Shown piece by piece: positions 8,349 through 62,687 of a stretch of 64,000 nucleotides of DNA. Origin of the DNA: Somniosus microcephalus (taxonomy: Eukaryota); the NCBI GenBank assembly GCA_052327205.1, contig CM126229.1:23808001-23872000 (forward strand), given 5' to 3'. Below the pieces are notes generated by a model. The model had not been told where the DNA came from. It searched no databases and saw only the letters and a list, made by a program, of their open reading frames with translations. The number at the start of each line of letters is the position of its first letter. The stretch's first letter is position 1. The translations under genes and the position numbers were made by a program.

Positions 8349-9453
8349 ATGGATACCAGTGAAGAGCTTCCAAAAAAAGTCTTCAAGGCCAGAAAAACAA
8401 TGCGCGCAAGTGACCGACAACAGCTAGAGGCTATCTATAAAAGCAGAGACGAGCTTTTAAAAACAAATGAAGAGACCAAAACTAAACTGTGTAATGGTAG
8501 ACATGAAAACGGAGATTCTGACGGCAAAGCCTCACTAAATACTAACTGCATGGATAATACAGACATTGATAGCATTAATGATGTGAGGCTGGGCCCAGAG
8601 GAACTGCAAGGCAACCCTATTGATGAACTTAGTAAGACACAAACACCTGAACTAAGCTTTGCTGAAAAATGTCTAAATGAAGATAAGGACTTAAGCCCAC
8701 AAGATGAAAAAATGGACTCGACACCCCCAGTTGCTGAAGATGAACAGATTTCCACTGGGAGTGCGGGAAACCAAGTTTTGGTAGACGCTGAGAGCAAAGG
8801 AGATGACGCTGTGGAACCAGAGTCTGTCGAGTTGAAGCAGGATTCTTTAATTGCAGATAAATCATGTACTGATTCCCAGAGCCTTTCAGAAGAGGAAAAA
8901 CCTCCTTCTGTTGGTGACAGCAGGAGTCAGGAAGTACCAGATGAAAGTAGCCTTAAGTTACAGTCTTCCTCTTCCTCTGTGAGAGAAAAGGAAGACCATG
9001 AAAGATCATTGGACATTAGTGAAGAGGCAATTACAAGTAGCATAGAATCTGTGCAGGAGAAAAATGATTGTGAAAGCTCTAAGATGGAGTGTGCAGAGAC
9101 TGAAAGTGAGATTGCAACAAAAGACAAATTAAGTGAGAACAAATCGGGTGGGAAGAGCCAACTGGAAATAGAAGAAATAATCCCTATTTTGGAGAAATTG
9201 GCCCCAGAGAAAGACAATGAATTATCCAGTATGCAAGACATTGTTCCTGCAGTGGATTCCCCGTCACCAAAGGACAGTCCATTGAAAGACATGCAGGACG
9301 AGCAGATGGACACCTCTCCAAGCAGTTCTCCAAAAGAGGAGTGCAATGGCAACTTGCCAGAGGAGGCATTCCTCGTCTTATCAGACGAGGATGAGCCACT
9401 AATTGAGAATCAAACAGAAAGTGAAGAGCTGGTACCAAAAAATGATAGTCCAG
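8349..9453 (+). CDS. ATF7IP: ATF7IP (MCAF1) first coding exon; exon starts at 8339
   Basis: MDTSEELPKKVFKARKTMRASDRQQLEAIYK matches the vertebrate ATF7IP N-terminus; acidic region with EEIIPILEKLAP and AFLVLSDED motifs; acceptor cttttcag|8339; donor 9453|gtatgc, phase 1. Confidence 0.95.
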
Positions 9454-16710: not shown

Positions 16711-16761
16711 ATTCAGACCACAAAGAGCAAGCAGCTGACACAAGACAAAAGCAAGAACCAA
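16711..16761 (+). CDS. ATF7IP: ATF7IP small exon (51 nt, phase 1-1)
   Basis: tgcttcatag|16711 ... 16761|gtaagt; open in phase (DSDHKEQAADTRQKQEP); keeps frame between neighbouring exons but the peptide is not recognisably conserved. Confidence 0.6.
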
Positions 16762-20943: not shown

Positions 20944-21089
20944 ATGAAGTTGTGCCACGAAAAAGGTCCAAGTCTGAAGACATGGATAGCAGTATATCCA
21001 AGCGGTGTCGGTTTTCTGGAGATGAATATGAGGCTGCCTTAAAAGTGAAGATCACTGCCAGAGGGGAGATCCGCCAGACGCTGGAGAAG
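20944..21089 (+). CDS. ATF7IP: ATF7IP exon (basic NLS-like region, start of SETDB1-binding domain)
   Basis: ctttgtag|20944; EVVPRKRSKSEDMDSSISKRCRFSGDEYEAALKVKITARGEIRQTLEK resembles mammalian RKRSKSEDMD...KITAKGDINQKLQK; donor gtatgt; phase 1 to 0. Confidence 0.93.
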
Positions 21090-27172: not shown

Positions 27173-27310
27173 ATCGTTCAGCAGATCATTGAAGAGCGCA
27201 TCAGCTCCATGCAGAGTGGTGTTTTCGACAAGAAGCTGGCAGAGCTGAAAAACCGAGTAGAAAAAATTGAATGCAACACGAGGCATGAATCTTTAATCAG
27301 TGGCTTACAG
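27173..27310 (+). CDS. ATF7IP: ATF7IP exon (SETDB1-binding coiled coil), GC donor
   Basis: ttttttgtgcag|27173; IVQQIIEERISSMQSGVFDKKLAELKNRVEKIECNTRHESLISGLQ resembles mammalian VFDKTLAELKTRVEKIECNKRH; donor cag|GCAAGT; phase 0-0. Confidence 0.93.
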
Positions 27311-28238
27311 GCAAGTACCAGAATCGACAGCTTTCTTCAATGTAAAGGGTAGAAATACTTTGGAACAGCACTGTCACTCCCCACTCCTTATGCCCTTGTG
27401 AATGAACAATCATGGCATGGTAATCTTGTTGAAATGGTTATTGTGGCATTCGCCAAAGAACGTGTGTTTGCCTCAAATATTCACTATTATCTTGTGTTGT
27501 GCCTTTGAGCTTAAGGAACAACTTTAGAGTATTGGGTCCTAGATTCCAGTTAAGCAGATTGTTAGCATTGACCAGCGGAGTTTTTTCTATAGTCCAATTT
27601 CCCAGTTTAAATATACAATAATAGTTGACTTGCTGGCTCAAAACGTAATTGCACGTTGAAATAAGATGGAGTGCCATTGTCCCGTCAGCTGAAATACTGT
27701 AACTGCTGAATTGTAGCCATGTGTTCATTAACTTAAGTTTTTGAAGGAACAAAAATGACATCACAATAAATGCAATTGCGGAAGATTTAAAGCTCACAAC
27801 CTTATCACTGTTGAAGGATGTGGTTTTCCAGCTACATTTGGCTGCAGGGAGGAAGCGAGAGCAAATCGACCTGTGCTAAATTTCTCTGCTTCCAAGTTGT
27901 TAGGCAGATGCCTATGTTGCGATTGAGGTTTGCTGTTTTCTCTTGCAGCCGTTGTGCAGCACTTTCTGTGAGCAGAACTTGCCCCCCCGAGCTTGCTCAC
28001 TTAAATAATCTTAAAATGAAATGTTAAAATCTTGAAATGCACACAATTTACAATACAATGACCTAAGAATATCCACCATAAAATACTGATGTGGAACTTC
28101 AGCATTGACATTTGCTTGCTCTGTTGTGACGGCCCCAGAATCAGACATGCTCAGCAACTGTCTCCCAAGCCATGCATAAAATCACCAGACGGAAACACCA
28201 GCCATTACAGAAAATCTTAACAGGCGCTATCTTAACCT

Positions 28239-31768: not shown

Positions 31769-31849
31769 GCAAAACTAATACAGATAGAGAAGAGGCTAGG
31801 ATCAGCAAATCAAGCTCGCAATGATCCTGCCTTGAAGAAAGCACAAGAG
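31769..31849 (+). CDS. ATF7IP: ATF7IP exon (end of coiled coil)
   Basis: ttttctgcag|31769; AKLIQIEKRLGSANQARNDPALKKAQE resembles mammalian AKIARLTKRF...LKKRHE; donor gtaggt; phase 0-0. Confidence 0.88.
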
Positions 31850-34621
31850 GTAGGTACCAAATGGGACTATTGCTTAATTGCTTAGGAAATATAATGTGCT
31901 TGGGCCTTATCATGACCCTGTAGTATACCAGTAGTGGCTCAGTACCCTTCTGGATGCAGCGAGGGTGAACTTAAAATCTCCAGAAATTAACCCTCACCTC
32001 TATTATTTTTTCCATTTCTGTAAGGGTATTAGGATATCGAAGTTAGATCCTGCAAATCTAAATGATTCAAACAGTATTGCTTCAAGCATCTACACTTGTA
32101 TGCATCCATACTCTGCCAGCTCAAATATAAACTTCTCGTCTTGTAATCATCTTCTCTGTATGCTTACAAATTAACTCAAATTACCTGCTTTACTCTCACT
32201 CGCACAGATACTATCTCAGTAGTTTCAATCCTTGGCAGGAACTCAAACACTCCCAGTACAAGAATAACCCTCACTGCAGCTCAAAATATACCTTGTGGGT
32301 TCTCTCGCTGCGATTTGGCATGCATGTACTTTCTGAGGAATGTTAAATATTTCTGGGTACTGTAAATTATAGAGCAGGAGACAGGAATGAAAGTAAGACA
32401 CATAAACATGGCTTGGAAATAACAAAAATGGAAAAGACAGCAATTTTCAATTGGAAGTTTTGCTTAGGAGATGTAACTTTAAAAACACTCTTTTTAAAGC
32501 CCATTTTTACCTTTTCAGAAACCTAGTGGGTCTTTGCAGATTCCAATATAGTAGAAATATTATTTATTTGTGAATGCGCAAGTGCTACTACATTAAACAG
32601 TGGGGGGAAAAATTCTAAATACAAACTATATAAAGTAGGGAGATAAACTATAAGTCAATAATGTCAAGGGCCTAAGTAGCCCCCATGCATGTGTTAGCCA
32701 TTCAGTGGCCTTGGGGTCAACACTGTGGAGTCTGGAAAGTCCTCCTGGTCGACCAGCATGAACAAGCAGTCATTCAGTGGATGTGCAGCCTCCTCCACTG
32801 CACCACAGCTTCACAGAGGGCTGTTCCCGAGTCCCCAGGTGTGGTCATTTGCCGCACACCTTGTCACATCTAACATGGTTAAGCTTACACCACTGATGAC
32901 GTGGCAGCTTGCAGCAATGTAGTCTCTCCTCCGCTGGATACTGGAAGTAAACATGCACTTCAAACAGTAATCCATTGTGCTTTCGAGAAGTTTTGATTTT
33001 AAGGGAGTCATTATATACGTGAAATTATTACAGGATTGTTGCAGCTGACCGCTCCTCCTTTTGTATAAATTGGCGTTCAGACTGTTATTAGCTGTTGCCC
33101 CATTTTGTGTACAGTTATTTTATCCTGTATATTAAGAGTCAAAAATGAAATGTTGGTGTAAGTTGATGCCTTCACATAGGAGCTGCTTGAGCCGACCCAG
33201 TAACCTATTTGAACAAAAACAAAGTGATTGTTCCAGTAAAAGAAGCTACAGACATGCTCTTGCTCTCGGCCGGGAGAGGAATAAAGGCCTAAAGCAAAGC
33301 CATGGTTTTCTCCGAGCACATCGGCATGTTACTCCCGACCTAGAGTTTAAACTTGCACTATCCCAACTATGCAAGGAAATAAAATTGGACAAAAGTCAGA
33401 TTTCTATATAGTCTTGATATGTGTCACCGTTTAATGCAAGATTGCTATAAACGTGCCTTCCTCCCTCTGCCCCCTTTCTCCCATGGTTAGAAATGAGGAA
33501 AGGGTTTTGTCGATGCTGAAAATGTACAAATCCATAAATTAATTTTCCCATTTGGTGCTGGTGCACATGGAACACTGTATATGTAAACAAAATAGCTCAA
33601 TAAAAGATGTTGATTTGGCTAATGTCCATCGGATCTCTTAAGATCAATATTTGGAAGAGGTTAATTTGCAGTGATGCACAAGCAAAGATTCAGTGGAATT
33701 TTAGCAGACTTTCCCCCCCCCCCCCCCGCTGGTATACTTTTGAGGCTGCTGCAGGGAACTAGTGTTTCAGTACCACGGTAGACTGGTGGCGTCCTTCTAC
33801 CGTGAATCACTGTTGACTGCGAGTTCATTGTAAAACTAATAGTTCTGAGAGATTCCAATGACTATGTAAAGTCTGTCAGGATCCTGAAATTGTATTGCAG
33901 CTTGTAAGGTGTTTCTCTTCACTGTTTTCAGCATACATGGATGCCCATGGTGATTTGCTTATTTCGCCAGGAAGTATTGTTTGATGTATATGTTGTATAA
34001 GTCAGTGATGTACATAACTTAACGGTTGGCTGTTTCACGAGTTCCCCTCCTGTTTTTACACTCCAAGCTAAGGCTTGCTGTTCAGTTCCTATCTCCCAGT
34101 TCCACATGTTACCTTTTAGGTTCCATTCAGCCGAGGAGAAAGGGGAAGAATGTGATGAAAGGGCCGGTTGTACAAGTTGTTTTGCTTGTAGTTTTTAAAT
34201 GGTTTCTATCTTGTATTTGTTGGATTGCTGTAAGGTTTCACTAGCAATGTTGATCTGTTACGTTATTGCAGAGCTTTCAGCTTCTGGCTGAGGAAACCTT
34301 TTTGCAACTTGGGGACTTTAGTGCACTAGTTATCCTGCAGGCATTGGGGTGGGTCCAAATTCTTAACAGCTGCAGAACCTGCACAGAGATTCTGAATGTG
34401 AAGTGAACCATTTTAAAAAATTCAAAATATTTTATTTCTACAACAGACCATATTTATTTTGATGATTTATAAAACTGAAACCTCCTCTTCTGTCCAAACT
34501 AGATAAGAGAATGTAGAGAATAAGTAGTGGTTGTGCCAATGATAAATGTCAAAGTATGCATTCATTGAAAGATTATTCATTGACTGGATATAACTTATAG
34601 AAGGTTAATGCTAAGTCAAAC

Positions 34622-35010
34622 ATTATACAGCACCTCATCTTTCGATTAGGCACTTTACAGCCTTCTCGACTCAACATTGAGTTCAACAATTTCAGACTAT
34701 AACCCCCCATTTTTTCAGGCGGCAGCTGTTGATGATTCTGCCATCCCCATTTGCAACATTTAATCTCTCCTGAGTTCAATCCAAGCATAGACTGTCCCTT
34801 TAGTTCCTTCCTCCCCTCCAACCCCCCTTTCCCTGCCTCTGCACCTGCTTAAAACCCGTTACATCTTCAACTTTTACCAGTTCTGATGAAGGGTCCCAGA
34901 CCTGAAACGTTAACTCTGTTTCTCTCTCCATGGATGCTGCCTGGCCTGCTGAGTGTTTCCAGCATTTTCGGCTGTTGTTTCAGATTGTCAGCATCTGCAG
35001 TATTTTGCTA
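34622..35010 (+). mobile_element. Penelope-like element 3' fragment
   Basis: QHLIFRLGTLQPSRLNIEFNNFR (same as the end of ORF 61786-62526), followed by 3' UTR. Confidence 0.8.
34879..34915 (+). ncRNA. Minimal hammerhead ribozyme core, sense to ATF7IP pre-mRNA
   Basis: AGTT-CTGATGA-AGGGTC-CCA-GACCT-GAAA-CGTT-AACT: intact core, stem I AGTT/AACT, stem II with one bulge, palindromic AACGTT. Confidence 0.65.
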
Positions 35011-37302
35011 TTGTATTATTATTAAAACCTTCACAGCCTTCCATAACCTCGAATTATTTTCAACCTTCTGGAGTATGCTATTTGCATAACAACAGTGCCG
35101 AAATGTTTTTATGCACAGTTGCTGTTGTGTGGGTAAGGTCCGTGCAGGTAGCGATGAATCCAGCTGACTACTGGGCCCATGGAGCGGGATAAGTCGTAAG
35201 CCTACTTCAGCAATCCTGTTTTGGGGTTGATACCTCTCCGTGATAAATGCACTGCTCATTGCATGAAAGTTGGAGCTAGTAAAGCATTGCACCGAAGTTG
35301 AAGACTACCTGTGTAGGAGACGCTCATTGATCAGAGTTGCTTGAAAAAGAGGAACGTTAAAGGCTGAGAAGCAAGCAGGAGTTGGCATTCGACGAGGGGG
35401 GGAATGGGCAGATTTCATGGTCAATTGGCCTGTTTTTGTGCTGGAACATTGATCGATTGTAAGGAGCTGTGGAAATGTACAAAAACTGTTGTACCCATCT
35501 GCCATGCTGGAGACATTTAACAGCAACTCCCTCATCACCAGCACAGCATGTTCGCTCGGAACGCTGGCCCCCTTTACTAGGGCAGCCAAGCAACTTGCTC
35601 AGTTTGCGGCATCTGCAACGATGCATGCAAGGGGAAGCTAGATAAGTACATGAGGGAGAAAGGAATAGAAGGATATGCTGATAGGAGAAGGTGAAGTAAA
35701 GAGGGGGGCTCGTGTGGAGCATAAACACCGGCATAGACCGGGTTGGGCCGAATGACCCGTTTCTGTACTATAAATTCTATGTGATAGGCTCGGAAATTGC
35801 TGCGATATAGTACTAGGTGTGAGTGAATTACTTGCTCTTACATGGGACGTGCTGGATGCATGTAGATGGGTATGGGAGTTCTTCATGACACAATCTTCAA
35901 CTACCACCGAAGTATGACATTGTTGAACGCCCCCAACCCCACAATATTTACACAATTACAACAGGCCCTCTTAACTTTTGTAACCTCTATTTTATGTTCA
36001 GAAAATTTACTAATTTTTGTAAATGTTTTGCAGCTTTAGCGGTCTCCAGGAATAAGGATGGGTAAAACATTTTGATAACGTGCATTGCTGCAACAACAGT
36101 CGAGGTCTACACACCCTTTTTCAGAATTACAGCAATCCATTGGCCTGGTGAGGGGTGGAAATCTAATGTGCACTAACACTGGGTTCCTGCTGGTGGTGCT
36201 GTTAGTTTTAGAGGCATTGTTGCTCCCAATAGTGCCATCAATAGGCACCTGCGAGTTACTACAGCAGCAGCGCATGAAGATAAGTTTCTCAAATCATTTA
36301 TTCTGTGTGCCCATTAATTACAGGCACAATGATCTGCTCAGCAGATGAAAGACAAAGTGTTGGGGGAAGGAGAGAAAAGCATACTCTTTCACTTCCCCCT
36401 CCCCCCTTCCGTAATCAGCATTTAGTTAATGCAAAAAGGCTTTTTAATTTTAAAAAAATACACTCCTACCTTGCTGGAGATGAACTATTGTTGACTGGTA
36501 TTGTATTCTGTAACTCTGCACCAGCTGATTACTGCTGCGTACTTGGCTGGCATTCTTTTGGCTCAGAAGCCTCCTGATTGACATTTGGAAGGGGGTGGTT
36601 GAATACAGACTTACAGGATTTCGATTAGAGGTGCTTCCAGACAATCCTGTTCACCAACTTCAGCTGAGCAGCTCTCCGGCTGAGTGTGGAGACTCAAAAT
36701 GATGGGTGTTTGTCAGAAGATGAAATCCCTTCAATAGTGTGCTTTTTAACCTTTATACCTCAATATCAGTGGGGGAGCAGAGGAAGTACTTTATATTGAA
36801 AGTATTGCCCTACAGTTTTTTCCATTAAACACGTGTTGTAGGACTCATTTCTATTTGTAGTATGTTCTGGCTCTAACAGGAACACAACCGTGGCCCAGGC
36901 CCAGGCCCAGGCCCAGGTTACGTTTTTTTTTTAACAACTTTAATTTTAGTCGGATGTTGCAACTTGGTCCCGTGTGTCTTCACTATTTGACACACGATAA
37001 TTTACTCAGTTTATTTTATACTAATTGCCAGTGAACTGTCGGATTCGAGCTTTTAGTAGCCATTGGGTGTATTTGTTGGCATGCTGTTGCTGTTGATTTG
37101 TGAAGGTAGCTGGGGGGGGGGGGTGGGGGGAGAAACGATGAGGATTGGGAAAACTTGTATTGTGCTGAAATTTTAGTGTGTGAGTGAGATTGGAAAGTGA
37201 TGCAAGAGGGGAAGAAAATTGTGAACTTTTTTGGAAACCTCAGAAGGATAAAAATATTACATTAAAGGATCAGCACTTGGTGGAGGCATAAATTAGGACT
37301 GT

Positions 37303-38590
37303 TGTATGGGCCCAGGGTTCACAGCCCATTGCCCAGCACCATTCTGTATGGGCTCGGGGTTCACAGCCCATTGCCCAGCACCATTCTGTATGGGCTCGGG
37401 GTTCACAGCCCATTGCCCAGCACCATTCTGTATGGGCCCGGGGTTCACAGCCCATTGCCCAGCACCATTCTGTATGGGCTCGGGTTCACAGCCCATTGCC
37501 CAGCACCATTCTGTATGGGCCCGGGGTTCACAGCCCATTGCCCAGCACCATTCTGTATGGGCCCAGGGTTCACAGCCCATTGCCCAGCACCATTCTGTAT
37601 GGGCCCGGGGTTCACAGCCCATTGCCCAGCACCATTCTGTATGGGCCCAGGGTTCACAGCCCATTGCCCAGCACCATTCTGTATGAGCTCGGGGTTCACA
37701 GCCCATTGCCCAGCACCATTCTGTATGGGCCCGGGGTTCACAGCCCATTGCCCAGCACCATTCTGTATGGACTCAGGGCTCACAGCCCACTGCCCAGCAC
37801 CATTCTGTATGGGCTCAGGGTTCACAGCCCATTGCCCAGCACCATTCTGTATGGGCTCAATAATCACGCCCATTGCCCAGCACCATTCTGTATGGGCCCA
37901 GGGTTCACAGCCCATTGCCCAGCACCATTCTGTATGGGCTCAATAATCACGCCCATTGCCCAGCACCATTCTGTATGGGCTCAGGGTTCACAGCCCATTG
38001 CCCAGCACCATTCTGTATGGGCTCAATAATCACGCCCATTGCCCAGCACCATTCTGTATGGGCTCAATAATCACGCCCATTGCCCAGCACCATTCTGTAT
38101 GGGGCCCGGGGTTCACAGCCCATTGCCCAGCACCATTCTGTATGGGCTCAATAATCACGCCCATTGCCCAGCACCATTCTGTATGGGCTCAGGGTTCACA
38201 GCCCATTGCCCAGCACCATTCTGTATGGGCCCGGGGTTCACAGCCCATTGCCCAGCACCATTCTGTATGGGCCCGGGGTTCACGGCCCATTGCCCAGCAC
38301 CATTCTGTATGGGCTCAGGGTTCACAGCCCATTGCCCAGCACCATTCTGTATGGACTCAGGGCTCACAGCCCATTGCCCAGCACCATTCTGTATGGGCCC
38401 GGGGTTCACAGCCCATTGCCCAGCACCATTCTGTATGGGCTCAGGGTTCACAGCCCACTGCCCAGCACCATTCTGTATGGGTCCGGGGTTCACAGCCCAT
38501 TGCCCAGCACCATTCTGTATGGGCTCGGGGTTCACAACCCATTGCCCAGCACCATTCTGTATGGGCTCAGTAATCACGCCCACTGCCCAG
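37303..38590. repeat. 42-bp minisatellite (~31 units) with interspersed 41-bp variant
   Basis: Unit ctgtatgggcccggggttcacagcccattgcccagcaccatt; variant ctgtatgggctcaataatcacgcccattgcccagcaccatt. Confidence 0.97.
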
Positions 38591-40357
38591 TCAGCATTTT
38601 GGGAGCTAGCAGAGCACCTCAACTTTCCAACAGCACAGTGAAGGGGCCGGGTGCTAGGGTTTGGATGATCAGCCATGATCTCGTTGAATGGTGGAGCAGG
38701 CTCGAAGGGCCGAAATGGCCTACTCCTACTCCTGCTCCTATCTTCTATGTTTCTATGAACCTCATTAGGCTTCAGTATACTTTTTTTTTAAAAACATTGT
38801 TCAGGTTGAAATTTAATTTGGCTGCATTATGCTATAAAGTAGTTTGATTTACTTATGAAAATTAAAAATAGTTATACTTTGTGAAATATTCCTTAACAAA
38901 ATGAAGTATATGGTCCTCTATATACTCCCGAAGATGGGGTTCACATGAAGTGTGGAAATGGGGAGTCCAAATACTTAAAGATAACATTTAAACTTTAGGA
39001 GTTGCTGTCGCAAACAGAACTTTGGAACCATATTACTTTTAGCTCTGATGGATTTCCAGGACAATAACTCTGTGTGTTGAACCACCTTTTATTATCAGGA
39101 TTGTCCCTCCTCACTTATTACTGTAGTTATACAGTTGCAGTCTGCCGTAGCTGTACAGATTTGCAAGGAGTGCAGAATTGTTTTTGCAGTGAGTGTTGGA
39201 ACATGTTGAAAAAAAACCAGAGAGTCGATTTCCAAGTGCCCTGTGGAGAAATGCATCTCCGGTTTCAGGACTATTCACACGGTGGGGGGGGTTACAGCAT
39301 TTGATTGGATGATCTGCCAAACCTAGAGTGCTCTTGAGGCCCCAGTTAAACTCCTGGTGCACTAAACTCGAGTCTGTAAGGACTATGGAAAAGCAGCCTG
39401 GTTTTCCTCCTCTTCCTCCCGTGATCGATAAGTTATTGATGTCACAATGACTTGACGGCCTTCATTCGTTGACATCTAGTGACACTGCTATGGCATCACT
39501 GAACAGGATGAGACAAGTCCGTTTAACTCAAGTAAGTGAGCAAAGTTCTTTTTTTAAATCCAATGAAACAGTGTTCTGATAAAGCTGGTATTTAAAGTGA
39601 GTAAGAGACGATTACAAAAATGTTGTGGTTTGGATAATGTATATTACGAGTTGTGATGTACCTGTTTTATGATTCATGGGCACTCTTTGGACAATAATTG
39701 AGGTATACACGCCAGAAGCACATAGTATATGGAATTTAATTCCCAACTATGATCGGAGGGGGCAACAAATGGTTGAGACTCCCCTCTGTGGCTGTAGCAA
39801 GCCTGCACTATTCGTGGCCTGAGCTTCTGACACGGATATCAAAGCTTTGTTTGCAGCTGTCAGGGAATCCGAATCCTGGGCGGGCATTCTTTCCAACCAG
39901 GAGTGCAATCGGATTAGGATTTACCTTGTAGATAGAGATGCGAGTGGTGGGAAATGACTAATGCCCCTTGATCCTGAAAATGAACAATGAGCCAGCCCTT
40001 GATTCATTACCAGGGCTCTGAAGTTTCAGTGCTTTGTTGTAACCCTCATTTTATTGTGGAAACTGCTTTTCAACAGGGGCGGCGCTGTACATTCAGTGAA
40101 ACAAACTGCTAGTTGTAATATTGTTTAACAGGTGCTGTATTGCCCCAGACTCTACAGGTGGGGTGCTGAAGTAGTGATGAATTCTGCTCCATTACTAGAT
40201 GGTTTGTTCTCTGTATCCTTCTGCCACCACCCAAAAAAGTCAGTTGTTCATTGGATCAATTCAAACCCAAAAACAATTTAATCATATTTGTCTTGCCCTA
40301 AATTTTGAAGAAGGTTCACTGGCTTTACTGGCAGGTTCTTCTGTTTCTTTGTCTCAG

Positions 40358-42625
40358 ATTCCTGCACCTTTTCAACCAGAAATGCAATTTGATTTGAGCA
40401 ACAAAGAGAAGTTCAAGTTGGCAAAGAAAAATGAGAAACACCAGTTTGGCAAGTCCACTGTGCAAACGGAACAGGTTCCACTGCAGAATAGTAGGATTTC
40501 TTGGAATACATGCAGCCAACCTGCTGTGGAAAAAAGAGGGGTTCTATTTCAAGATAATAGGATGGTCTATATTACTTTTCACAAGCCTGTTACAAAGAAA
40601 CGACAGAGTTCATTACACAACCGTAGAGCTCCATCTGAAATGCTTGCTAAACCTGTTGCAAACAGGCAACCGGTTATGATACACGGCAGTAAAATAGTCT
40701 ATAATACATTTGATAACCCCATCACAAAAAAACAGGCTGCACTGCATGAGAGTCTGGCCGCCCATGATTGTGTTGAGGCCGTTCCAGCGAAGCAAGAGGC
40801 TGTATTACGTGCTTGTCGATTTTCTGCTGCGCCAGACAAGCAAGTTACATTAAAGCAACAGATTACATTGCAGCACAATAGATCTCTGCATAATAAGTCT
40901 GCTGTCGGGAAGCAGCAAATTGCATTACATAATAGACCTATTTTAAAGTGTAAGGTTCCATTGCAGGATTGTCGAATATCACCAGGCAAACCTGTTGCAT
41001 TAAAGCAACAGGCTCCACTGCAGCATAATGGAACTCTGTCTCCATCAGACCCAACAAGTGCATTGCACAATCAACAAGTTGCATTACAAGAGAATAGATC
41101 CGGTAAGCCTTTGCTAAAGCAGGAAGTTCCACTGCAGGATTGTAGGGTTTCTGCTGAATTGGGCAAAGCTGTTGCATTAAAACAACAAGCACCATTACAG
41201 TATAACAGAACTCTAAGTATTAATCACAAATCCACTACAGATAAGCATCAGGTTGCGTTAATAGATAATCAAACTCGCTGTAACTCATTTGGGGACACCA
41301 TAGTGAAGGAGCATGAGGCTCCATTAAGAATCAGTAGAACTTCCAAGAGTATGTTTGTCCAGTTATCTACAGAGAAGCCACAGGTTTATGATAGTACACT
41401 TGTCAAGCAAAAGCAGGTTCTTTTACAAGAGGGTAATGGCCCCAATAGTACCTCTGGAAAGCCTGGTACAGAACAGCAACATGTAACACTACATGCGAGT
41501 AAGACTCCCTCTATTGTCCTTGGTGAGCCTGATGCAGGTACGCCATGTGTAATATTTCGAGAGAATAAGACTCTGTGCAATGCGTTTGGAGTGCCCACTT
41601 CAGAGAATCAACAAACAGTGTTACACGAGAGTAGAACTCCCTATAATGGGTTTGATGGACCTGCTGTGGAGCAGCGGGTTTCACTGCCAGTTAAACGGGC
41701 CTCCAAAGACATTTGTAAGCCTGTTCCGGACAACAGAAAACGGGTGATTATACAAGATAGCGTAATTCCCTACAATACAAAGAGAGCCACAGCCTGGGGC
41801 GTTCGAGCTTGGGATGAGTGGGCTAAAAACCGGAATAACTACCTCATGGAAAATAGTATGAAATGCGATGAGTCATTCCTTTATGTGCCAATACTGTCTC
41901 ATGAAATAAGTCACGATGAACTGAATTTCTGGTTGTGCCACTTTGTGGAGGAAGTCCGTCGGCAAGATGGATCATTTTACCCACCTAATTCTCTCCGTCT
42001 CCTGTGCTGCTCCATCTTGCGATACTTGCGTGAAACCTGCAAGCGACTGGACATTGATTTCTTTAACAAATATAACGTGGAGTATTCCGAGTTTCGGACT
42101 GTCCTTGATAGGCAGATGAAACAACTTAAACAACAGGGGATTGGTACTGTAAGGAAACAAGCGCAGCCTTACACAGAAGAAGAAGAAGAAAAACTGTGGC
42201 AAATAGTTTTTCAACTTCGAGATGCAAAAAGTTACAGTTACGCTGTCTATTTCTACCTCTGCAAAGTCTTTGGTGTACACGCAGCAGCCGAGCACAATAA
42301 ATTGATGGTCAATCAGTTTTCCTTCGGAGCTGATGAAATTGGGGAATATTTGGAGTTTGTGGCAAAGCCTTACCGAGATGGAATCCAGAGGACTAAAGGA
42401 CACACTCGGCAGTATGCAGACTTGTCCAACCCGCGATGTATTGTTTCTGTCTTCCGTCGCTACCTCAGCATGGTCCCCAGCGACGGTCCGTTTTACCGGC
42501 GCCCACTTCCCGGACGGCTGGAGTTCTGCCAGCAGGCGATAGGAGTTCACACCCTGGAGCGCTACTCCAAAGAAATCTGTGATGCGGGTGACATTTCAGG
42601 ACGCCACACTGGCCAATCTGGAAGG
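40358..42625 (+). CDS. Large exon encoding a 22-aa repeat array and Crypton tyrosine-recombinase/DUF3504-like domain; predicted alternative exon of ATF7IP
   Basis: 756 uninterrupted codons; acceptor ttcttctgtttctttgtctcag|40358 in phase 0; donor agg|gtaagt at 42625; motifs IPYNTKRATAWGVRAWDEW, LNFWLCHFVEEVRRQDGSFYPPNSL, FRTVLDRQMKQL, EEEEKLW, NPRCIV, GPFYRRP, AIGVHTL are typical of Crypton/DUF3504 proteins. Confidence 0.88.
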
Positions 42626-44790
42626 GTAAGTATAAACCGTGTTTTATTATTGTTGCAAAGACAAGAGACATTTTACTTCCTATTATCTATACTATGCATT
42701 TTAATGCATTTAACAGCCTGTGTAGAAGTTAACCCAGCACAGGCACTTTTTTTAATGCTAAATTACTGTCTCCTGCATTCTTGCTATTTTTAAAGGTCAA
42801 GTGACAAAGCCTAGGTTTTTACACAATTGTGAACTGGAAGAACAATTTTAAAAAGTTGTATCGTACCGTTTTGTATTTCATTTTATTACCTCTGCCCCTT
42901 TTTTTTCGTTGCCCATTTTAACCCCGATCGCTGGTTTTTCTGCCTCCCACAACTTTGCTACTTCTGCTCATAGGCCAGATTCAGACTTAGGCTGCAAATT
43001 TCCAAGGAATGCCTTCAGTGCGACCCAAGATTATCCAGTGGGAGGTTATATACAAGCAGGCTGTCAGATGATGTCATTCGTCTACTCTTCCCGTTTCCCC
43101 CCCCCCCCCCCCCCAAACACCTTTCCACTAGGAATGCTCATTTCTGCACCGTGCTCCTTCCTTCCAGTGGTTCAGGAGTCTCGCCCAGCTGCAGCATGGT
43201 TAATGACGGGCAGCCCTGGAGCTTGAATTTGCAACCAATAGGCTGAAATTCTACCACATGCCATCTGCTTTTCTGTGAACTTCCCACCAAAAAATAATGC
43301 ATAGTTGTCTAAAACGGTGAAGCCCTGAGAGACCAACTTCATAAAGCTAAAGGACGTTGATTATAAATGAGGATCCTGTTGAGATTGTGCTGCAAGTGGA
43401 TCAGGGCACCTTCAAGCATTGAGGTTAAGATCTTATTGGAATTGATTTGTACAGCTTGTGTCCAGCCAGAAGTAAATTTACTCTAGTAACAGGCACGGTT
43501 GATCGCTGGAGAGATGATACCTGTGTAATTACTGCCTGCTTCCACAATGAGGAGATGATGGTTGTCGATGCAGAGGGGAGTGTGGGGGCAGGGTGAGGAA
43601 GTCTTTCCAATACACCGTGGTAGCCAGATTTCTTTGAGATTATTTCAGCTGGGATGAGACTTATCAAGATTCCGAACAGAATTTTGTGCACTTTGCTTCA
43701 GTGAGAATGTGGACTTATTTAAGTGTATGACATCATTTCAGAGAATCAACTCAGAATATCAATGTTGCAACCCCAGATTCATATACAACCAGCTAGATTA
43801 CAAACCTGATCCTATTTCCTCCCAGTGAGCTTTTCACATGTTAGGTTTTGAGTACACAGTGATTTACACAGGTGTGTGTGAGCCATCCATCGATTGTGTC
43901 TGTTACTGCGGCAGTTTCTAGTGAATGCGATTTCAGTAGGTGAGGGCAACGTTGACAGGGCAGCTAGATTAATTCAAAGTTGACAGATTGAGTCCCTCTT
44001 TGATCATTGCATTAAGCATTATTGTAAACCTATCCTATGTGCAGCCACTGCCTCTTAGCAGCAAAAGTTTTCAGATTTCAAAAGGGAATTGGATAAGTCC
44101 CTGAAGGAAAAAAATTTGCAGGGCTACGGGGAAAGGGCAGGGGACTGGGACGAGCTGAAGTGCTCTTGCAGGGAGCTGGGATGGGCCAAATGGCCTCCTG
44201 TGCTGTAACCATTCTATGATTCTATGAGATTCTAATTTTTGACTGGCAAGGATCTTTTTAAATGGGCTCACTATATTAAGGTCCAAAGTGGATTCTCTGT
44301 TAGATTGCATTTCTTGCAATGTATTCAGAAATTTAATGAAGAATTTGCTTAACTTTGCCAAAAGAATACATTTTCAACAAATGAAAATTTGGGTTCTGAC
44401 TTATTCTGGTCAAACTTTACAGATGTTTAAAGAGGGAACCTCAGAGTTATGTAAAATATTAAACCCAGAATTCTGTTTAAAGCAGAATGGGTTCATAGGA
44501 CCAGAGGACATGAGCTTGAATGGGGAGGTATAATTTTAAAACTGGTATTAGGAAGAACATGTTTACAAAGGGTGATAAATTCTGGGATAAACTGCCAGGC
44601 AAGGTAGGAGAAGGAAACGGGCTTTCCAAATGCAGCAGGATGGGGCAGTTGGGGTGCTAAAGAGATGAGCTTCAGTGGGCTGCAAGGTCATTTATCACCC
44701 ACACTCTTACTGTGTTCAAGATGTGACCTGTTGAATAAGTTGGAAGACCCACTATATCTGCCTTCCAACCCGAGCAGATCCTTCACTGTT

Positions 44791-45139
44791 CACAGAATCA
44801 CAGAAACCCACAGTGCAGATAGAGGCCATTTCGGCCCATCGAGCCTGCACCGACACATATCCCACCCGATCCCTGTAATCCCTACACATATCCCACCCTA
44901 TCCCCGTAACCCCACGTATTTAATCCCCCTAACACTAAGGGTCAATTTTTTTTTTATCATAGCCAATCAACCTAACCTGCACATCTTTGGACTGTGGGAG
45001 GAAACCGGAGCACCCGGAGGAAACCCACGCAAACACAGGGAGAATGTGCAAACTCCACACAGACAGTCACCCGAGGCCGGATTCGAACCCGGGTCCCTGG
45101 CGCTGTGAGGCAACAGTGCTAACCACCGTGCCACCGTAC
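44791..45139 (-). mobile_element. HE1-type V-SINE (tRNA-derived)
   Basis: Minus strand: box A tggcacggtgg, box B ggttcgaatcc, V-domain gtgtggagtttgcacattctccctgtg...gggtttcctccgggtgctccggtttcctcccaca, CR1-like tail. Confidence 0.9.
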
Positions 45140-48079
45140 CATAGCTCACAGAAGGCCTCTAGTACTGAAGCGGAAGGCTTATGCAAAGCCTGAGAACCTT
45201 AATATTTCAACATTGTTCGGTTTCTCAGGCAGTATAGTGTGACTGAAGATACTAAGCATTTGTAGGTGAAGGCAGTTTACTTAATCTGACGGTACAGGTT
45301 ACATGCCCTCACTAACTGCGTGCTCTTGCATGTTAAACTGTGGCTGATCCCTTTATTTTCATAGTTTAATATTTCCAGACCTAAATGTTTATCCATACAG
45401 AATAAAATTCAAAGCACACCAACACTTCAATTGTTTATATTTTTTTGAAACTCAAGCGATTTAACTTCCACTTTGTGGATTTGTATTTTCGTTTACAATG
45501 ACCATTAGCGTTCGAATCAGAACTTGAGGGAAACTTTGTCATTTGACCTTCAAAAAAAATATCTTTAATACTTGGTACTGGTGGTTTATTGATAATACAA
45601 TGGAGCCTTGAGATCATCATCCAAATTGCCAAAGGATTTTCCCCCAGGGTTTAACCATGTTAAAATAATGCATCTGTAGTCATGTTGGTTATATACTAAA
45701 GTGGCAGCGAACTTTGATCTTAGTATTTGATCTCAACAAAGTTGGTCTGAAGTGGGCTGCACCACATTCTCCTGGCTAGTGCGACTAAATTAAAAAATGC
45801 CGGGTGCTGTCTGCGCATCTCTGTCTCTGATAAATTGCCCATCATAACTATGTGTACAATAAGCCCTCACTATAATACTGTGATAGACCCCAGCCCTTTT
45901 CATACTGTTTATCGCCAGTCAGTAATGATGTAAACAACCATCTATGTAACTTCCTTCATCCTCTTGCTTCCCCACCCCAACTATGAAATTTTCTGATAGG
46001 AAATGACCACACAGACACTGCACCCGACTGAACTCTTTTCCGAGTGGCTATCGCTATTACTATCTGGGTTTTTTTTAAACTAGCATAATGAACCAGATTG
46101 GATGAGCAGGATTGACCAATCGGTTGCTAAGCTGTTGTTATAATCTGTGGACAGCAACATTGTCCAAGTGGCTAAGATCGTAATTAGCAAAACTGAAATT
46201 CTACCAGAAGTTTCCCACTTGGCTACCAGCAAGCAACACCAATTGTAGCATGCCCATAAGCCCACAGGCACACTCTTTTTTAAGCATGTGTATATCTCCG
46301 CATTATTGTCCAACCCACAGAAATGGCATTATGGAGGAGGCTGGCCTTTTGTGTGTTTGTTACAAAACACAATTTAATTCACCTTGGACCAAAACATTCA
46401 ACAACAGAAATGGTTGACATTTCTCTGAATAGAATTGTACCGACACTTTTATTGAATAACACAAAGTTGTCCACTGAGAGAATTCAAACTCTCTCAATCC
46501 CAAGCTCCAGCTCATAACTTTGTATATATAATTGACCAGCGCCAATTGACTTGGGAAGATTTAATCAGTGTAACCAAGCATGCAACTATTTCTCGGAAAT
46601 ATGTTTTTCCTTATTTTGGGGGTGGGGCGGGAGAACGGGACTCTTGTTGATGGCCCTTTAGCATTCAAGTTACTGAAGAGATTTTTTTGTGTCAACTATT
46701 GGTAAATTCTGCAGTGTTTTAATATTTTGTTTTCCCTTTCTATGATGGTGATTTTTGACTGCATTGTGTGGCTTTCACAGAGTTGTTTAGGCTTTCTGGG
46801 AGCACTGATGTGATTGTCAAATTCCAAATGGATTTGTGTTTAACAAAAAAAAGCTCAATAGTCAAATTGGAGTTGTAAGGACAAAATTGTCTTGCACTGT
46901 GGTAGAAATCCATTAGTTGTGGCTTCATTGGGCCTGCAAACAATTGGACTTGCTGCACTGGTGTGCAGATTGTAATGTTGCAGCAAGACAATGTAATTGA
47001 AAACAGACTGGATCAAACACTCAATTTATATTGACCAGATTCAAGGACCTTCCTGCTACTAAACACACGAGAGTAGAATATGATGTTATTAACTTAGATG
47101 CAACACTGTTGTTATTATAGAATTTGAATTGGCAAACCCCAAAAATTCGGAATGAAAGTGATGCCACGGCATACTTTTTGGGCCTTGTTGTTTTTATGAA
47201 ATTTTGAATTAAATGCTGAATATATCTGTGCCCTTGGGTTACCCACAATAAAGCCTTCATGCTGTTTCCCTTGTCCCTAAATGAAATTCTATTTAGTCAC
47301 TTTTAATCCCAGTTTTTACATCTTCCCTTGTGTCCATTTTTTTTAGGTCACTTTTTTATCTACCTGGCACATTCACTTTGTACTTAGTTTTCACAAACTT
47401 GGGGGTTTTTTTTTGTCAGTGCTAGATGACAGTTTAAGCTCCACAAAACTGCAATGACGGGTCATTGCAAAGGTGATCTGACTCGCTGTTCAGTGAATTT
47501 AGGATGTGTTGGATGTATCTCTGAGGGAAATCTATTGTATTGGTGAAATCCTGTTACTGTCACTTCACACTGTTGCATTTGTGTCCCCTTTTAGTTTACT
47601 CAAGTCAACATGATATTAACAGGAATTCACTACTTGAGATATTTTGGCAAAATGTTTATTTCTCTGGTGGGGTGTGGATCCTTACTTGCAAATTTTGGGT
47701 AATCCTGTTGCTGCTATTGTTTTTGTAAACCCTTTGTTGTATTGGGGGATGCATTAAAGGTTTGGATTTCCTAGGTGGCTCTCCCAGTTTGTGGTATGGC
47801 AGACCAGTGGGGCATTGCATTCATTCTACCAAACCAAAAGTGCCGCTACTCTGCAGTAACCTTCCAAGTCTTAATTGAATTCACCCCAATTTCAAAAAGC
47901 CCAAATTGTAAGAAGGAAATCCATTCTGACGCAGTTTAAATCAACAATGCCTCGGTGGTCCTCAAATGAGAAAATCTTAACGACCAATATCCGAAATCCA
48001 GCCTGTCTGCACAACCCCAGTGACTTGTTCATCTACACAGGCTTATTTTTCTTTTTTGTGTGTATTCATTTTGTTGTAG

Positions 48080-48448
48080 GTCAGCAGTGTAGCTGCCCTT
48101 CACAGTCGCGGCTTTGATGAAGAGCTAATTAAGGAACGAATGGGAAATGGCAGTAATGCAATGATGTCCTACAAAAAGACTCAAATGAAGGCAGTGTCTG
48201 ACTGTTTGCAGCCTCCAAACCCTTTGAAGAAGATCCCAGCTTGTTCACAGTCAACTTCTTCCTTGCGACAGCAAAGTGCTTGTGCACAAGAAGCAGTGAA
48301 CATAGTCACCCAGCCAGAAGCAGTGCTTACGACCCAGGAAGGATTGGTGAAGGTTGAACTGCCTTGTGGTACACCTTCAACATTACCAATGTCTTCTGTC
48401 AAAGTTGCAGCAACGTCATCCTATTGTGCTGCTAAAATCTTCCAGTAG
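48080..48448 (+). CDS. Terminal exon completing the Crypton YR/DUF3504 domain
   Basis: ttttgttgtag|48080, phase 0; VSSVAALHSRGFDEELIKERMGNGSNAMMSYKK continues HTGQSGR and aligns with the YR C-terminal consensus; stop at 48446-48448. Confidence 0.85.
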   Translation, partial: VSSVAALHSRGFDEELIKERMGNGSNAMMSYKKTQMKAVSDCLQPPNPLKKIPACSQSTSSLRQQSACAQEAVNIVTQPEAVLTTQEGLVKVELPCGTPSTLPMSSVKVAATSSYCAAKIFQ

Positions 48449-48491
48449 TGCAAAAAGACTCCCGTCATATTAGATTGTAAGAATATAAAAC

Positions 48492-48497
48492 AATAAA
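48492..48497 (+). promoter_or_regulatory. Polyadenylation signal of the Crypton terminal exon
   Basis: AATAAA 44 nt after the stop, followed by GU-rich tgtggtgtg about 17 nt downstream. Confidence 0.55.
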
Positions 48498-55800: not shown

Positions 55801-58800
55801 TTTTGCCCCCCTCTGGTAATGGTGATGTGATGGTGCTCGGGTTTTTCCATGCCGTGCTTCTCTCTCGCTATGTGATGTATAGTGTTTATACCACACATGA
55901 TGTCAGCTGGAAATAGCTTCCCTCATTTATGGCATCAGAGTTGAAAATTGATAGCGTGGAGAGGAAAGCAGTGATGCCACCAGAAGCAGTCCCCAGTCCT
56001 CATCTGTGTAGTTTGCTCTTGAGATTTTTATCCTTTAATTATCAAGAGTTACAAACCAAATACATAATGTGCAGCGATTGGATAAGGGTTTTATAATCCC
56101 ACTTGTAGAGCTTGACTATAGTACTGTTCAATTCCTTGGTAACTAATCATATTAGCCCAGCTGTGGGATATAAACTGTATTGCATGTCCCCTTCTCATGG
56201 ATAGATCTAGATATTTGTATTTTTTTTAAATTTCTGTCTGGGCACACTTCCCAACCACTTTACTGTGATAAATGTGGCCATAGAAATTTATAATGTAAAC
56301 TTGTCTGTTACTTGCTGTAATTACACTCTTGCAGCGCCACCACTGGCCGGAGGGTATAATTACAGTGATAAGTTGACATGGACAGTTCCATTATAAATGT
56401 GCACATAGGAATTTATGATGGAAATATAAAAATAAAGGCCGAATGTATGATTTTAAAATGGGGGCAGAATTATATCTGCACACTCTTGTCCAATTATCCC
56501 CAGCCCTCTACCCCTGCTTCCACCTGAAGACTACACTTAGTCTCGACTTCCCATGTGAAATGCTACAAATCAACTGGTTCGCGATAAAATATTTATGCAT
56601 TAAAATGAAAATTGGAGCAAATCTTTACCAAATCCAAATTTGTTCTTAACCTGAGCGCTTACAGCTACTATAGAAGTATTGTTCAAACTTTTCTGTGCGG
56701 GGGCCCCCCCAGCATGTATGGACATGCTCCTGGGGACTCCCTGTAATTCCTTTCAAAAGACAGTAAGCTAGCCAAAGATGAACATTGGCTCTCATTGCAG
56801 GAAATATTTTAATTTTAATTGGTGTACAGCAACAGAAGTAACATGATAAGCCAAATGCTGAAATCTGATGACCGCTTGATAGAAATCTGATGATCTCTGG
56901 GGCCTCCTAGGATCGTCTCACAGACCCCAGTTTGAAAACCACTGCTGTAGAGAATACTTCAAGGCTTATTCACGTGATGAAAGTGTGTGGACCCTAGTAA
57001 TAAATGGGCACTGGCTCTACATCTGTATTAGAATCAAAGTCTCTGGAATTGTTCACCTGCCAGAATTACGCATAGTTGTCAGATTTGCAGTATAGTATCT
57101 TGTTGGAAGTTTTGGATCACTTGATGAGTAAGTAATAGAAAATCTTGGTGTTTAGCTCTGTATCCTGTTATGCAGGTCTGGTTCAAAGTGCTTGTCTGTT
57201 TTATCCTAATCTTGTACATCTCATGGTTCTGCTTTATGTTGCTGCTGCTCTGAGCAGGGAATTATTAACAAGTCATGGCATCCTATAATTCTTAGAAGGC
57301 ATGCTTGCCCCTTAATCAGTTCTAATTGTGCATAATATACGTTTGGAAATGAAAGTATCTTTAGTGAGACCTGAGTGCACTGAGAGCTGTAATGTATATT
57401 CACACACCGCATGACCGTTTATGTCTCAAAGTAACTAATAATTTGGTATCGATGCTGGTAGTTAAAGTATCAAAGAGAAAGAAAAACCCCTATAATACAT
57501 CTTTGGGCAGAATCTTAAACGTGCAATCTGTGTGATCAGTGGGCACCCAGTCTGCAAGATTAAACTCCACCCACTACATAAGAGACCCTGTCTATAACTC
57601 TCGCTGTGGTCTAGTGTTTAAATTGCCTATATTTGGGAGTTGACGTCTGAAGTCAGTTGCAGTGAAATTGTGTTTACAGCATGTTACTGGATGTGCCCAA
57701 ATGCCAGTTATAGATGTACTAGGGAAGGGGAAAGAATATAGTAGCATCGAGTACATCACCAGCATTCTTTCACTCGGGAGAAAGATCGTGACTCAATTGT
57801 GTCCTCTTAGTGGATTTTTTTACACGTGAAAGAATAGCACATTTCCTCGCTCGACTATACTGTGTGTTTTAAACTGGTATTAAATTCTCATCTCTCTTTT
57901 TCAGCTGAATTCAAATGAAGGTGTATAACAATTGACTAACCAGTTGGCTAGTGATTTTTTTTTTTATTTGTAAAGAGACGCTAATATTGTTAGGAAAAAC
58001 AGTTGTGTTTGCATGCATATCTATTTATAGCACTCCTACCCTTTTCTCCTCACACCTACTAACCATTCCCAGTTCTTCACCGCCAGCAACATTGTCTGCC
58101 GTTGTAATCTATATCAGCACATTGCCAATGTCTTTATTGTGACGCAGTCTTATTTCTCAGCAGAATGCATCAGGCATGGAGTTCAAGCATGTTGCTCTCC
58201 CTCTCGTCCCAATTTACCACTGAGATTTGTATTCTTGTATAAGTGGAAAATGCTAAAAACTATAGAGAAATCTTTTCTATTTTAGCATAGCCTTTGGCAT
58301 CCATTAAAATGAAGTTTGAAAACCTGACAGATAAAAGACAGGTGGAAGGTGCAGAAATATTTGACATTTATTGAAGGCCAGAATTGCAAATATGAAAATG
58401 GCTGTTCATTGAAGGTCCAATTGTACCAAGACTGCATGTGTTCAATTCCAGCTACATGTAGGCAGCTGAATTATGGTTGTCTGCAGCATTAAATGGGCTC
58501 TGTTTCAAGATAAATGGGATACATTTTTGAAAAATGAACTGTGTTGATGTTCCTGAAGCTGCTGAGTTTGACTCTTGGGGCCATTGTGTTGTTGAAAGTG
58601 TTTGTCCATTTTGGCACCTCCATTCTTAATACTTTTTTTTTGTTTTGTCCAGAGTATTTCCATCTCAATGTCTCAGCAACCATCTGGACCCCAGCCTACT
58701 CAACCTGTCTCTCCCAGCAAATCCTACAACCCTCCTCTTGGTGCTTCTGGTAGTGTGCAGTGTCGCAGGTAAGGAGGCTCTTCCGTTTATTCAGTTTAAA

Positions 58801-62627: not shown

Positions 62628-62687
62628 CCTCAAAAATGTAATGCTTTTGTTGATGATGTAAATGGAGCTTTAAAGGCTGTACCTAGC

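Follow-up and report, generated by a model that had tools for sequence, protein, structure and literature searches.

We analyzed a stretch of 64,000 nucleotides (the window) from Somniosus microcephalus (contig CM126229.1, positions 23,808,001 to 23,872,000, forward strand), which contains the first coding exons of the gene for the SETDB1 cofactor ATF7IP. Five ATF7IP exons, joined from the ATG at 8349 onward, give 507 codons and end with the coil region that binds SETDB1. The intron after this coil contains a conserved, open cassette of two exons, which we call unit A and which encodes a domain related to the tyrosine recombinases (YR) of Crypton transposons. The coil-ending exon and both exons of unit A have AG/GT ends and lengths that are multiples of three; the joined frame encodes 1385 amino acids (507+878) with zero internal stops. 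The coordinates, phases and frame that an earlier note on this DNA had assigned to the fusion proved correct when exon ends, lengths and the joined frame were checked. Because the next canonical exon starts only at 58653 and the FN3 exon is located about 47 kb beyond the window end, unit A would form an alternative end, which removes everything behind the coil. All features are listed in Table 1.

The splice acceptors were ranked with a crude score of our own. The acceptor of unit A exon 1, described as strong in the earlier note, is among the top three of the 1689 AGs in the intron; that of exon 2 is of medium rank, since its score is reached by 141 of the 1689. An AATAAA follows the last exon, as the earlier note had said; with a density of this motif of 0.88 per kb downstream, one within about 60 nt is an event of about 5%.

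Table 1. Features of ATF7IP and unit A, in positions of the window.
Feature	Position	Strand	Basis or remark
First coding exon of ATF7IP, large, starting with the ATG; encodes the acidic N-terminal region	8349..9453	+	tblastn of shark ATF7IP models
ATF7IP exon, 51 nt	16711..16761	+	boundaries by exon joining
ATF7IP exon opening the SETDB1-binding coil region (PF16788)	20944..21089	+	
ATF7IP exon, mid-coil; GC donor	27173..27310	+	
ATF7IP coil-ending exon, 81 nt	31769..31849	+	phase-0 donor common to canonical and unit A isoforms
Putative remnant of parent gene 5' end, codons ~1-22, now polypyrimidine tract and acceptor	40240..40357	+	alignment to C4 paralog
Unit A exon 1	40358..42625	+	2268 nt, open over 756 codons; donor GTAAGT
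Unit A exon 1, linker (aa 508-973)	40358..41755	+	shuffle tests, alignment to paralog
Unit A exon 1, part of Crypton-derived YR fold	41756..42625	+	Pfam, Foldseek, catalytic alignment
Unit A intron, phase 0, directly after H-x-x-R motif	42626..48079	+	position same in C4 paralog
Unit A exon 2, with the remainder of the YR fold, the tail and the TAG stop	48080..48448	+	122 codons + TAG
AATAAA, which may serve the alternative last exon as poly(A) signal	48492..48497	+	
Next canonical ATF7IP exon	58653..58768	+	rival phase-0 acceptor

A Pfam search with unit A gave a match to QRICH1 (PF25561) with an E value of 4.5e-17, above the cut-off; DUF3504 (PF12012), the profile proposed for a check in the earlier note, was slightly below it (E 3e-6, 27.7 bits with a cut-off of 29.7). 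A sequence profile matched QRICH1 with an E value of 9e-31. The fold was predicted with AlphaFold2 for the sawshark ortholog, which is 96% identical over the domain, from an alignment of 98 rows. In this model 291 residues have a predicted local distance difference test score of at least 90, while the N-terminal part of 485 residues is of low confidence. Foldseek returned 39 PDB matches at E<=0.001; the top match is QRICH1 of the DNA-bound Zincore-ZFP91 complex (9hjt, E 2.5e-9), followed by Tre and then Cre, and both lobes of the Cre-like fold are kept. The Pfam matches, the predicted fold and the profile match support the Crypton/YR origin that had been proposed. The label recombinase is unlikely to apply, since three of five catalytic positions are replaced: the first Arg by His (42278-42280), the box-II His by Gln (42614-42616) and the later His by Asn (48146-48148). 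The second Arg (42623-42625) and the Tyr (48170-48172) are retained. The five positions read H-Q-R-N-Y in seven of the eight unit A sequences and H-Q-R-N-C in white shark, so that the three replacements are the same in all eight. A homodimer prediction for the YR domain scored 0.02 against a mark of 0.32 and was used neither way. FAM-like, PxVxL and SIM-like patterns, as defined by us, were not found within the 878 added residues.

Unit A was seen in eight species, in models predicted by NCBI. These models fuse it to ATF7IP in five elasmobranchs, namely Heptranchias (1387 aa), Heterodontus, Mustelus, Scyliorhinus canicula and Rhinoraja, and four of the five use the same acceptor as the window. 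NCBI builds such isoforms mostly from RNA-seq. The in-phase fusion proposed in the earlier note is thus supported at the DNA level and by predicted models from five species, which together describe an in-frame fusion of host and transposase-derived sequence. From the models we consider it very probable that the fused transcript is made. The YR core is 85-97% identical to six unit A orthologs, and the linker, which is variable in length, 47-83%; for comparison, five orthologs share 75-90% in the acidic region of ATF7IP and 88-94% in the coil exons. An alignment of 341 codons with the closest paralog (see below) gives proportions of 0.18 for nonsynonymous (pN) and 0.77 for synonymous differences (pS), the latter saturated, so that dN/dS is uncorrectable. 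Selection on the domain, suspected earlier, is supported by the open frame, the identity of the core and the difference between pN and pS, and would be of the purifying kind.

A search of the flanking DNA with unit A uncovered a further cassette, unit B. Its YR frame occupies C28:23883608-23884945 from its acceptor, about 11.6 kb past the window end and about 27 kb downstream of unit A. ATF7IP of this shark carries two distinct Crypton-derived cassettes, A and B, with 73 of 312 residues identical (23%). Unit B is a single exon, three exons downstream of unit A, and keeps R-H-R-H-Y; it may be a recombinase that is still active and is joined to a silencing cofactor. Over the core it shares 99% identity with Heterodontus and 76% with a turtle. 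An intact YR had been reported from an ATF7IP intron of birds, with a fusion predicted without transcript support (PMC3212892), and the ATF7IP Crypton has been dated to the ancestor of jawed vertebrates, with printed proteins from alligator and chimaera (PMC9004415). Predicted models with a fused unit B exist in Heterodontus, Narcine, Chiloscyllium, turtles and Ascaphus; this occurrence in sharks, an electric ray, turtles and a frog fits the prediction of Kojima and Jurka. By eye, 40 of the first 42 residues of the chimaera protein in Frith's fig. S5 agree with unit B. We considered unit A as the published ATF7IP Crypton and rejected this assignment; the true ortholog is unit B. The caveat in the earlier note, that the element of Kojima and Jurka might be the present cassette, does not apply. 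A near-identical duplicate of about 90 nt of unit B is located 0.8 kb past its stop (window-equivalent 77739-77828).

In unit A the linker starts with about 50 codons that are homologous to the N-terminus of a paralog on C4, followed by degenerate in-frame repeats. It has a net charge of +28 and is predicted to be disordered. The repeat array recorded in the earlier note is real: the off-diagonal self-similarity score was attained by none of 200 shuffles for each of three window sizes, and all start-to-start spacings in the ten DNA repeat families are multiples of three. A blastp search at E<1 did not find the internal repeats, which the shuffle test and the DNA repeat search did find. Among 345 windows of the core, the linker is matched best by the ~20 residues with which the YR domain opens (0/300 shuffles, a figure uncorrected for picking the best of 345). 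The alignments suggest that the linker is likely an in-frame amplification of these residues.

The 6.4-Gb genome contains one other close copy, at C4:158057439, with 231 of 337 residues identical to unit A (68%). This C4 gene (C4:158057262-158063900) is standalone, has two exons and encodes 507 aa; it is unnamed in RefSeq. Its ATG is preceded by two in-frame stops, and its intron, which carries a GC-rich tandem array, interrupts the same codon as in unit A. Genes of this type are annotated as standalone, with 504-508 aa, in the 15 listed members of a 20-member cluster, and their core is 96-98% identical across sharks and skates. The catalytic positions read C-H-R-P-Y in all six sequences. With unit A DNA as query, at least two places were found in the genome, mutually 70% identical; the check for dispersed near-identical copies that the earlier note had called for thus spoke against them, the two places being a lower bound. 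A coelacanth model of 484 aa is 47-49% identical to unit A and the C4 protein, has a tail of the paralog type and reads R-Q-R-R-D at the catalytic positions. Other than coelacanth, no chimaera, bony fish or tetrapod homolog was among the named hits, most of the 150 profile hits being unnamed.

The relationship was estimated with a quick tree of 70 rows, which covers 47 of 146 representative hits, all picked by the unit A profile; ZMYM/QRICH1 genes are absent from it. Unit A and the C4 gene are sisters (Shimodaira-Hasegawa-like approximate likelihood ratio test, SH-aLRT, 99) and the coelacanth protein joins them (100). The three sit among mostly unnamed relatives, of which the named ones are invertebrate (SH-aLRT 98-100), and these relatives mainly read HSGK (48 of 90 motif carriers). 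Unit B groups elsewhere, with a KCTD1-like locus that we take to be KCTD1.

The acceptor of unit A can be traced in this paralog. Similarity to the C4 gene extends upstream through the acceptor, and conservation rises at the acceptor. The alignment score of the upstream remnant was attained by none of 2000 protein and none of 1000 DNA shuffles. The acceptor AG (40356-40357) aligns to CCG, the codon for Pro22 in the paralog frame, with the context TCTTTGTCTC-A-GATT in the window versus TCTTTGTCTC-C-GATT in C4. Gln does not occur at codon 22 in any of 17 paralog-type proteins (13 Pro, 3 Leu, 1 Ser), and the aligned column in coelacanth is Pro; for these reasons the comparison favours CCG as the older state. 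The paralog ATG has no ATG counterpart in the window, where one of two alignments places TTG (40251-40253).

The retained intron points to a copy at the DNA level and not to a retrocopy. We think it quite probable, from these alignments, that unit A is a DNA duplicate of an already domesticated standalone Crypton gene. A fresh transposon insertion is the less likely origin; the paralog with the same intron, the acceptor alignment and the tree indicate a likely second-hand capture. Alternatively, two insertions of one then-active Crypton family could have given rise to unit A and the C4 gene. Beyond one 58-nt match far upstream, no similarity was found between the introns or flanks of the two loci, and no host gene was recognised by eye beside the C4 gene among 26 filtered frames in 200 kb. 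Evidence for an ancestral origin of their common intron is suggestive only: eight of 90 carriers of H-S-x-K/R end within 27 residues of this motif, seven of them with unrelated tails that start like a read-through of a donor, at a rate no higher than with control anchors (2/75, 4/60 and 5/66). The C4-type gene, the coelacanth homolog and unit A are likely a further lineage of Crypton domestication.

These data suggest the following sequence of events. A copy of the standalone gene would have landed in the ATF7IP intron. There, a C-to-A change in pyrimidine-rich codons may have created an acceptor whose phase suits the coil exon. The original start presumably decayed, and the N-terminal motif was apparently amplified into a long flexible linker. 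Splicing of the coil exon to unit A, as the gene models of five species predict, would yield the fused transcript.

In human ATF7IP, residues 574-666 are the minimal SETDB1-binding coil, which forms a 1:2 SETDB1:ATF7IP trimer, blocks export of SETDB1 and mixes with ATF7IP2 (PMC12167477). We mapped this segment onto the shark protein through a carnivore ortholog. The equivalent is complete in the fused isoform (aa 411-503 of 507), with residue 666 corresponding to aa 503, so that the join is located four residues past the minimal coil and excludes the FN3 hub; the PF16788 match in the retained part covers only positions 4-106 of 219. By analogy with the mammalian work, the coil would hold SETDB1 in the nucleus as a 1:2 trimer, including mixed trimers with canonical ATF7IP. 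FN3 binds ZMYM2, ZMYM4, MGA and MBD1, and ATF7IP without it retains SETDB1 binding and silences more weakly (PMC7706265); loss of FN3 would remove binding of these four partners. ZMYM2 and ZMYM4 are DUF3504 proteins (PMC3212892). Their binding to FN3, however, is via a short motif, in ZMYM2 at residues 182-220. Canonical ATF7IP binds such proteins in trans; the unit A isoform would hard-wire a domain of this kind in cis. In the weakest step, the YR fold would grip DNA or a DNA-bound zinc-finger protein in the manner of QRICH1 and so bring trimethylation of histone H3 lysine 9 (H3K9me3) to other loci. The Zincore paper reportedly describes a clamp mechanism of QRICH1 on a zinc-finger protein bound to DNA.

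On balance we slightly favour the reading that unit A is an alternative end, likely of duplicate origin, in which a non-cutting YR fold would likely tether SETDB1 to chromatin in place of the FN3 hub. Several observations weigh against it. Support for both junctions comes from predicted gene models only, and three of the eight species have non-fused models (Pristiophorus, Scyliorhinus torazame and Carcharodon). The structural match to QRICH1 has only 19% identity and an rmsd (root-mean-square deviation) of 17.6. Unit A was found in 8 of 20 cartilaginous species with a named ATF7IP, a lower bound from representatives only, and among the same representatives no unit A protein was seen for chimaera, carpet sharks or stingrays. 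It also diverges faster than the C4 gene (88% versus 97% identity to catshark and, for two different skates, 85% versus 96%). Finally, ZMYM2 reportedly does not bind DNA sequence-specifically on its own (PMC10415128), and one paper citing Zincore places QRICH1 in an activating context.

The main rival to targeting is that the isoform is a decoy or dose regulator, the coil of which draws SETDB1 away from FN3 partners while the YR fold serves stability or protein contacts. The formation of mixed ATF7IP/ATF7IP2 trimers, the weaker silencing by FN3-less ATF7IP and the lack of sequence-specific binding by ZMYM2 alone are in its favour, but a decoy has no need of a folded 340-aa domain that is kept at 85-97% identity with both Cre-like lobes retained. 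We lean modestly towards targeting and regard a decoy as a minority explanation. It is less probable still that unit A is an independent nested gene, with its own intronic promoter and the fusion a minor or mispredicted splice. The paralog is standalone, three species have non-fused models, and an in-frame ATG, at 40199, is present upstream of the acceptor and has a counterpart that starts the Pristiophorus model; S. torazame uses the same acceptor as the window with other upstream exons. However, the upstream peptides of window and Pristiophorus disagree in mid-length by eye, the start codon of the paralog aligns with no ATG here, the acceptor marks a rise in conservation to the paralog, and models from five of eight species are fused.

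The patchy occurrence, the fast divergence and the short white-shark model (280 aa, Cys at the Tyr position) might instead indicate a passenger that was once useful, is now redundant with the paralog and is being lost across lineages. The open frame, the core identity across sharks and a skate, and the identical replacements at three catalytic positions in all eight sequences make this improbable. Least likely is that unit A has stayed active, be it as a recombinase or as a mobile Crypton transposon: the Tyr is kept in seven of eight sequences and the second Arg in all eight, but the first Arg and both His are replaced throughout, and a live transposon disagrees with two places in 6.4 Gb (at least) that are 70% identical to each other.

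Comparison with known systems indicates what is new in unit A. It shares with the published ATF7IP Crypton (PMC3212892, PMC9004415) the host gene, a Crypton YR origin and proposed alternative splicing; that element, unit B, reaches turtles and a frog and has the KCTD1-like grouping, unlike unit A. In KIAA1958 a/b and KCTD1 isoform b a Crypton exon likewise provides the host gene with an additional isoform, and KIAA1958 has two alternative DUF3504 exons with 26% identity (PMC3212892). The Crypton exons of KIAA1958 are stated to be intronless, whereas unit A has an intron, and its host part is the coil of a SETDB1 cofactor, unlike those of KIAA1958 and KCTD1. All human DUF3504 proteins, including these two, are described as having lost Tyr and second Arg (PMC3212892); unit A keeps both and has lost the other three. 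This different pattern of catalytic loss fits a separate domestication. QRICH1 in Zincore (9hjt) and ZMYM2/3/4 also have a non-catalytic YR fold in a chromatin regulator, but in this genome several exons together encode each of their domains, and the exon layout of unit A differs from that of WOC/ZMYM/QRICH1 genes; unit A is predicted to be joined to its host in cis. A similar case is KRABINER (Cosby et al., bioRxiv 2020.05.07.082677), in which alternative splicing links a repressive host domain to a transposon-derived domain; in fusions of this type too the inserted sequence supplies the acceptor. The survey in question deals with tetrapods and never mentions Crypton or ATF7IP in its main text. 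The acceptor is upstream of the open reading frame in eight of its nine cases, whereas in unit A it is inside the donor frame. Unit A also differs in its likely donor, a domesticated gene, and in its fold, that of a tyrosine recombinase.

In the available text of the literature on ATF7IP and Crypton, subscription papers being outside the search, we did not find a fusion like that of unit A, and the accessible parts of Kojima 2018 and the 2026 Glomhopper paper add no such Crypton gene. Among the papers that name both terms, two deal with unit B, and in one review ATF7IP and Crypton are mentioned apart from each other. RefSeq already contains sequences of the unit A/C4 type, most of them labelled 'uncharacterized'. 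Two further chimaera accessions, listed in Table 3 of Kojima and Jurka, could be fragments of this lineage. The C4-type gene, the coelacanth homolog and unit A would form a lineage beyond the four described events and the ATF7IP element, as far as the available text of these papers goes. A single silencing cofactor would have acquired a recombinase fold on two occasions, one of them apparently second-hand, and the presumed change that created the splice site can still be read by comparison with the parent gene. The DUF3504 domain would here be linked to an effector whose activity is clearly read out as H3K9me3, which makes function open to testing.

A broader and rather doubtful idea is that shark and ray ATF7IP is a SETDB1 recruiter with swappable heads, in which the coil could be followed by FN3, by the dead Crypton A or by the intact Crypton B, and the trimer would mix heads. 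It would also include Tc1/pogo helix-turn-helix (HTH) cassettes in some rays. On this view unit A would act as a covalent clamp on zinc-finger proteins or DNA and guide H3K9me3 to transposon-derived sites with no need of KRAB-TRIM28, and its standalone parent, which coelacanth has too, would represent one more Crypton domestication of jawed vertebrates, so far undescribed. ATF7IP models of Mobula, Hypanus and Narcine contain in-frame HTH cassettes of Sleeping Beauty or CENP-B type after the exon preceding unit B, and the Hypanus model additionally has an N-terminal Tc5 HTH. These cassettes are predicted models and possibly artefacts.

Some other observations concern the window and the genome. 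The intron 3' of the mid-coil exon of ATF7IP is of the GC-AG type (window 27310-27312). The transposon frames near unit A are partial pieces of reverse transcriptase, GIY-YIG and hAT elements; the next ATF7IP intron contains a GIY-YIG (Penelope-like) fragment and a hAT dimerisation-domain fragment (61786-63589, minus strand). A 42-bp tandem array with 31 copies and 91% matches (37303-38598) is located 1.8 kb upstream of unit A. Elsewhere, scoring of 150 of 161 candidates gave 13 KRAB-box exons of equal score, 11 on C12:187-227 Mb and two on C37:14.0-14.1 Mb. Two that were read encode an identical protein, and no C2H2 array was present within 19 kb downstream of either. These two resemble the PRDM9/SSX-type KRAB exon, and the 13 are possibly an amplified PRDM9-like family. 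A single DUF3504 frame of 509 codons at C8:202731812 represents a further Crypton-derived gene, which is placed near KIAA1958-like loci in the tree.

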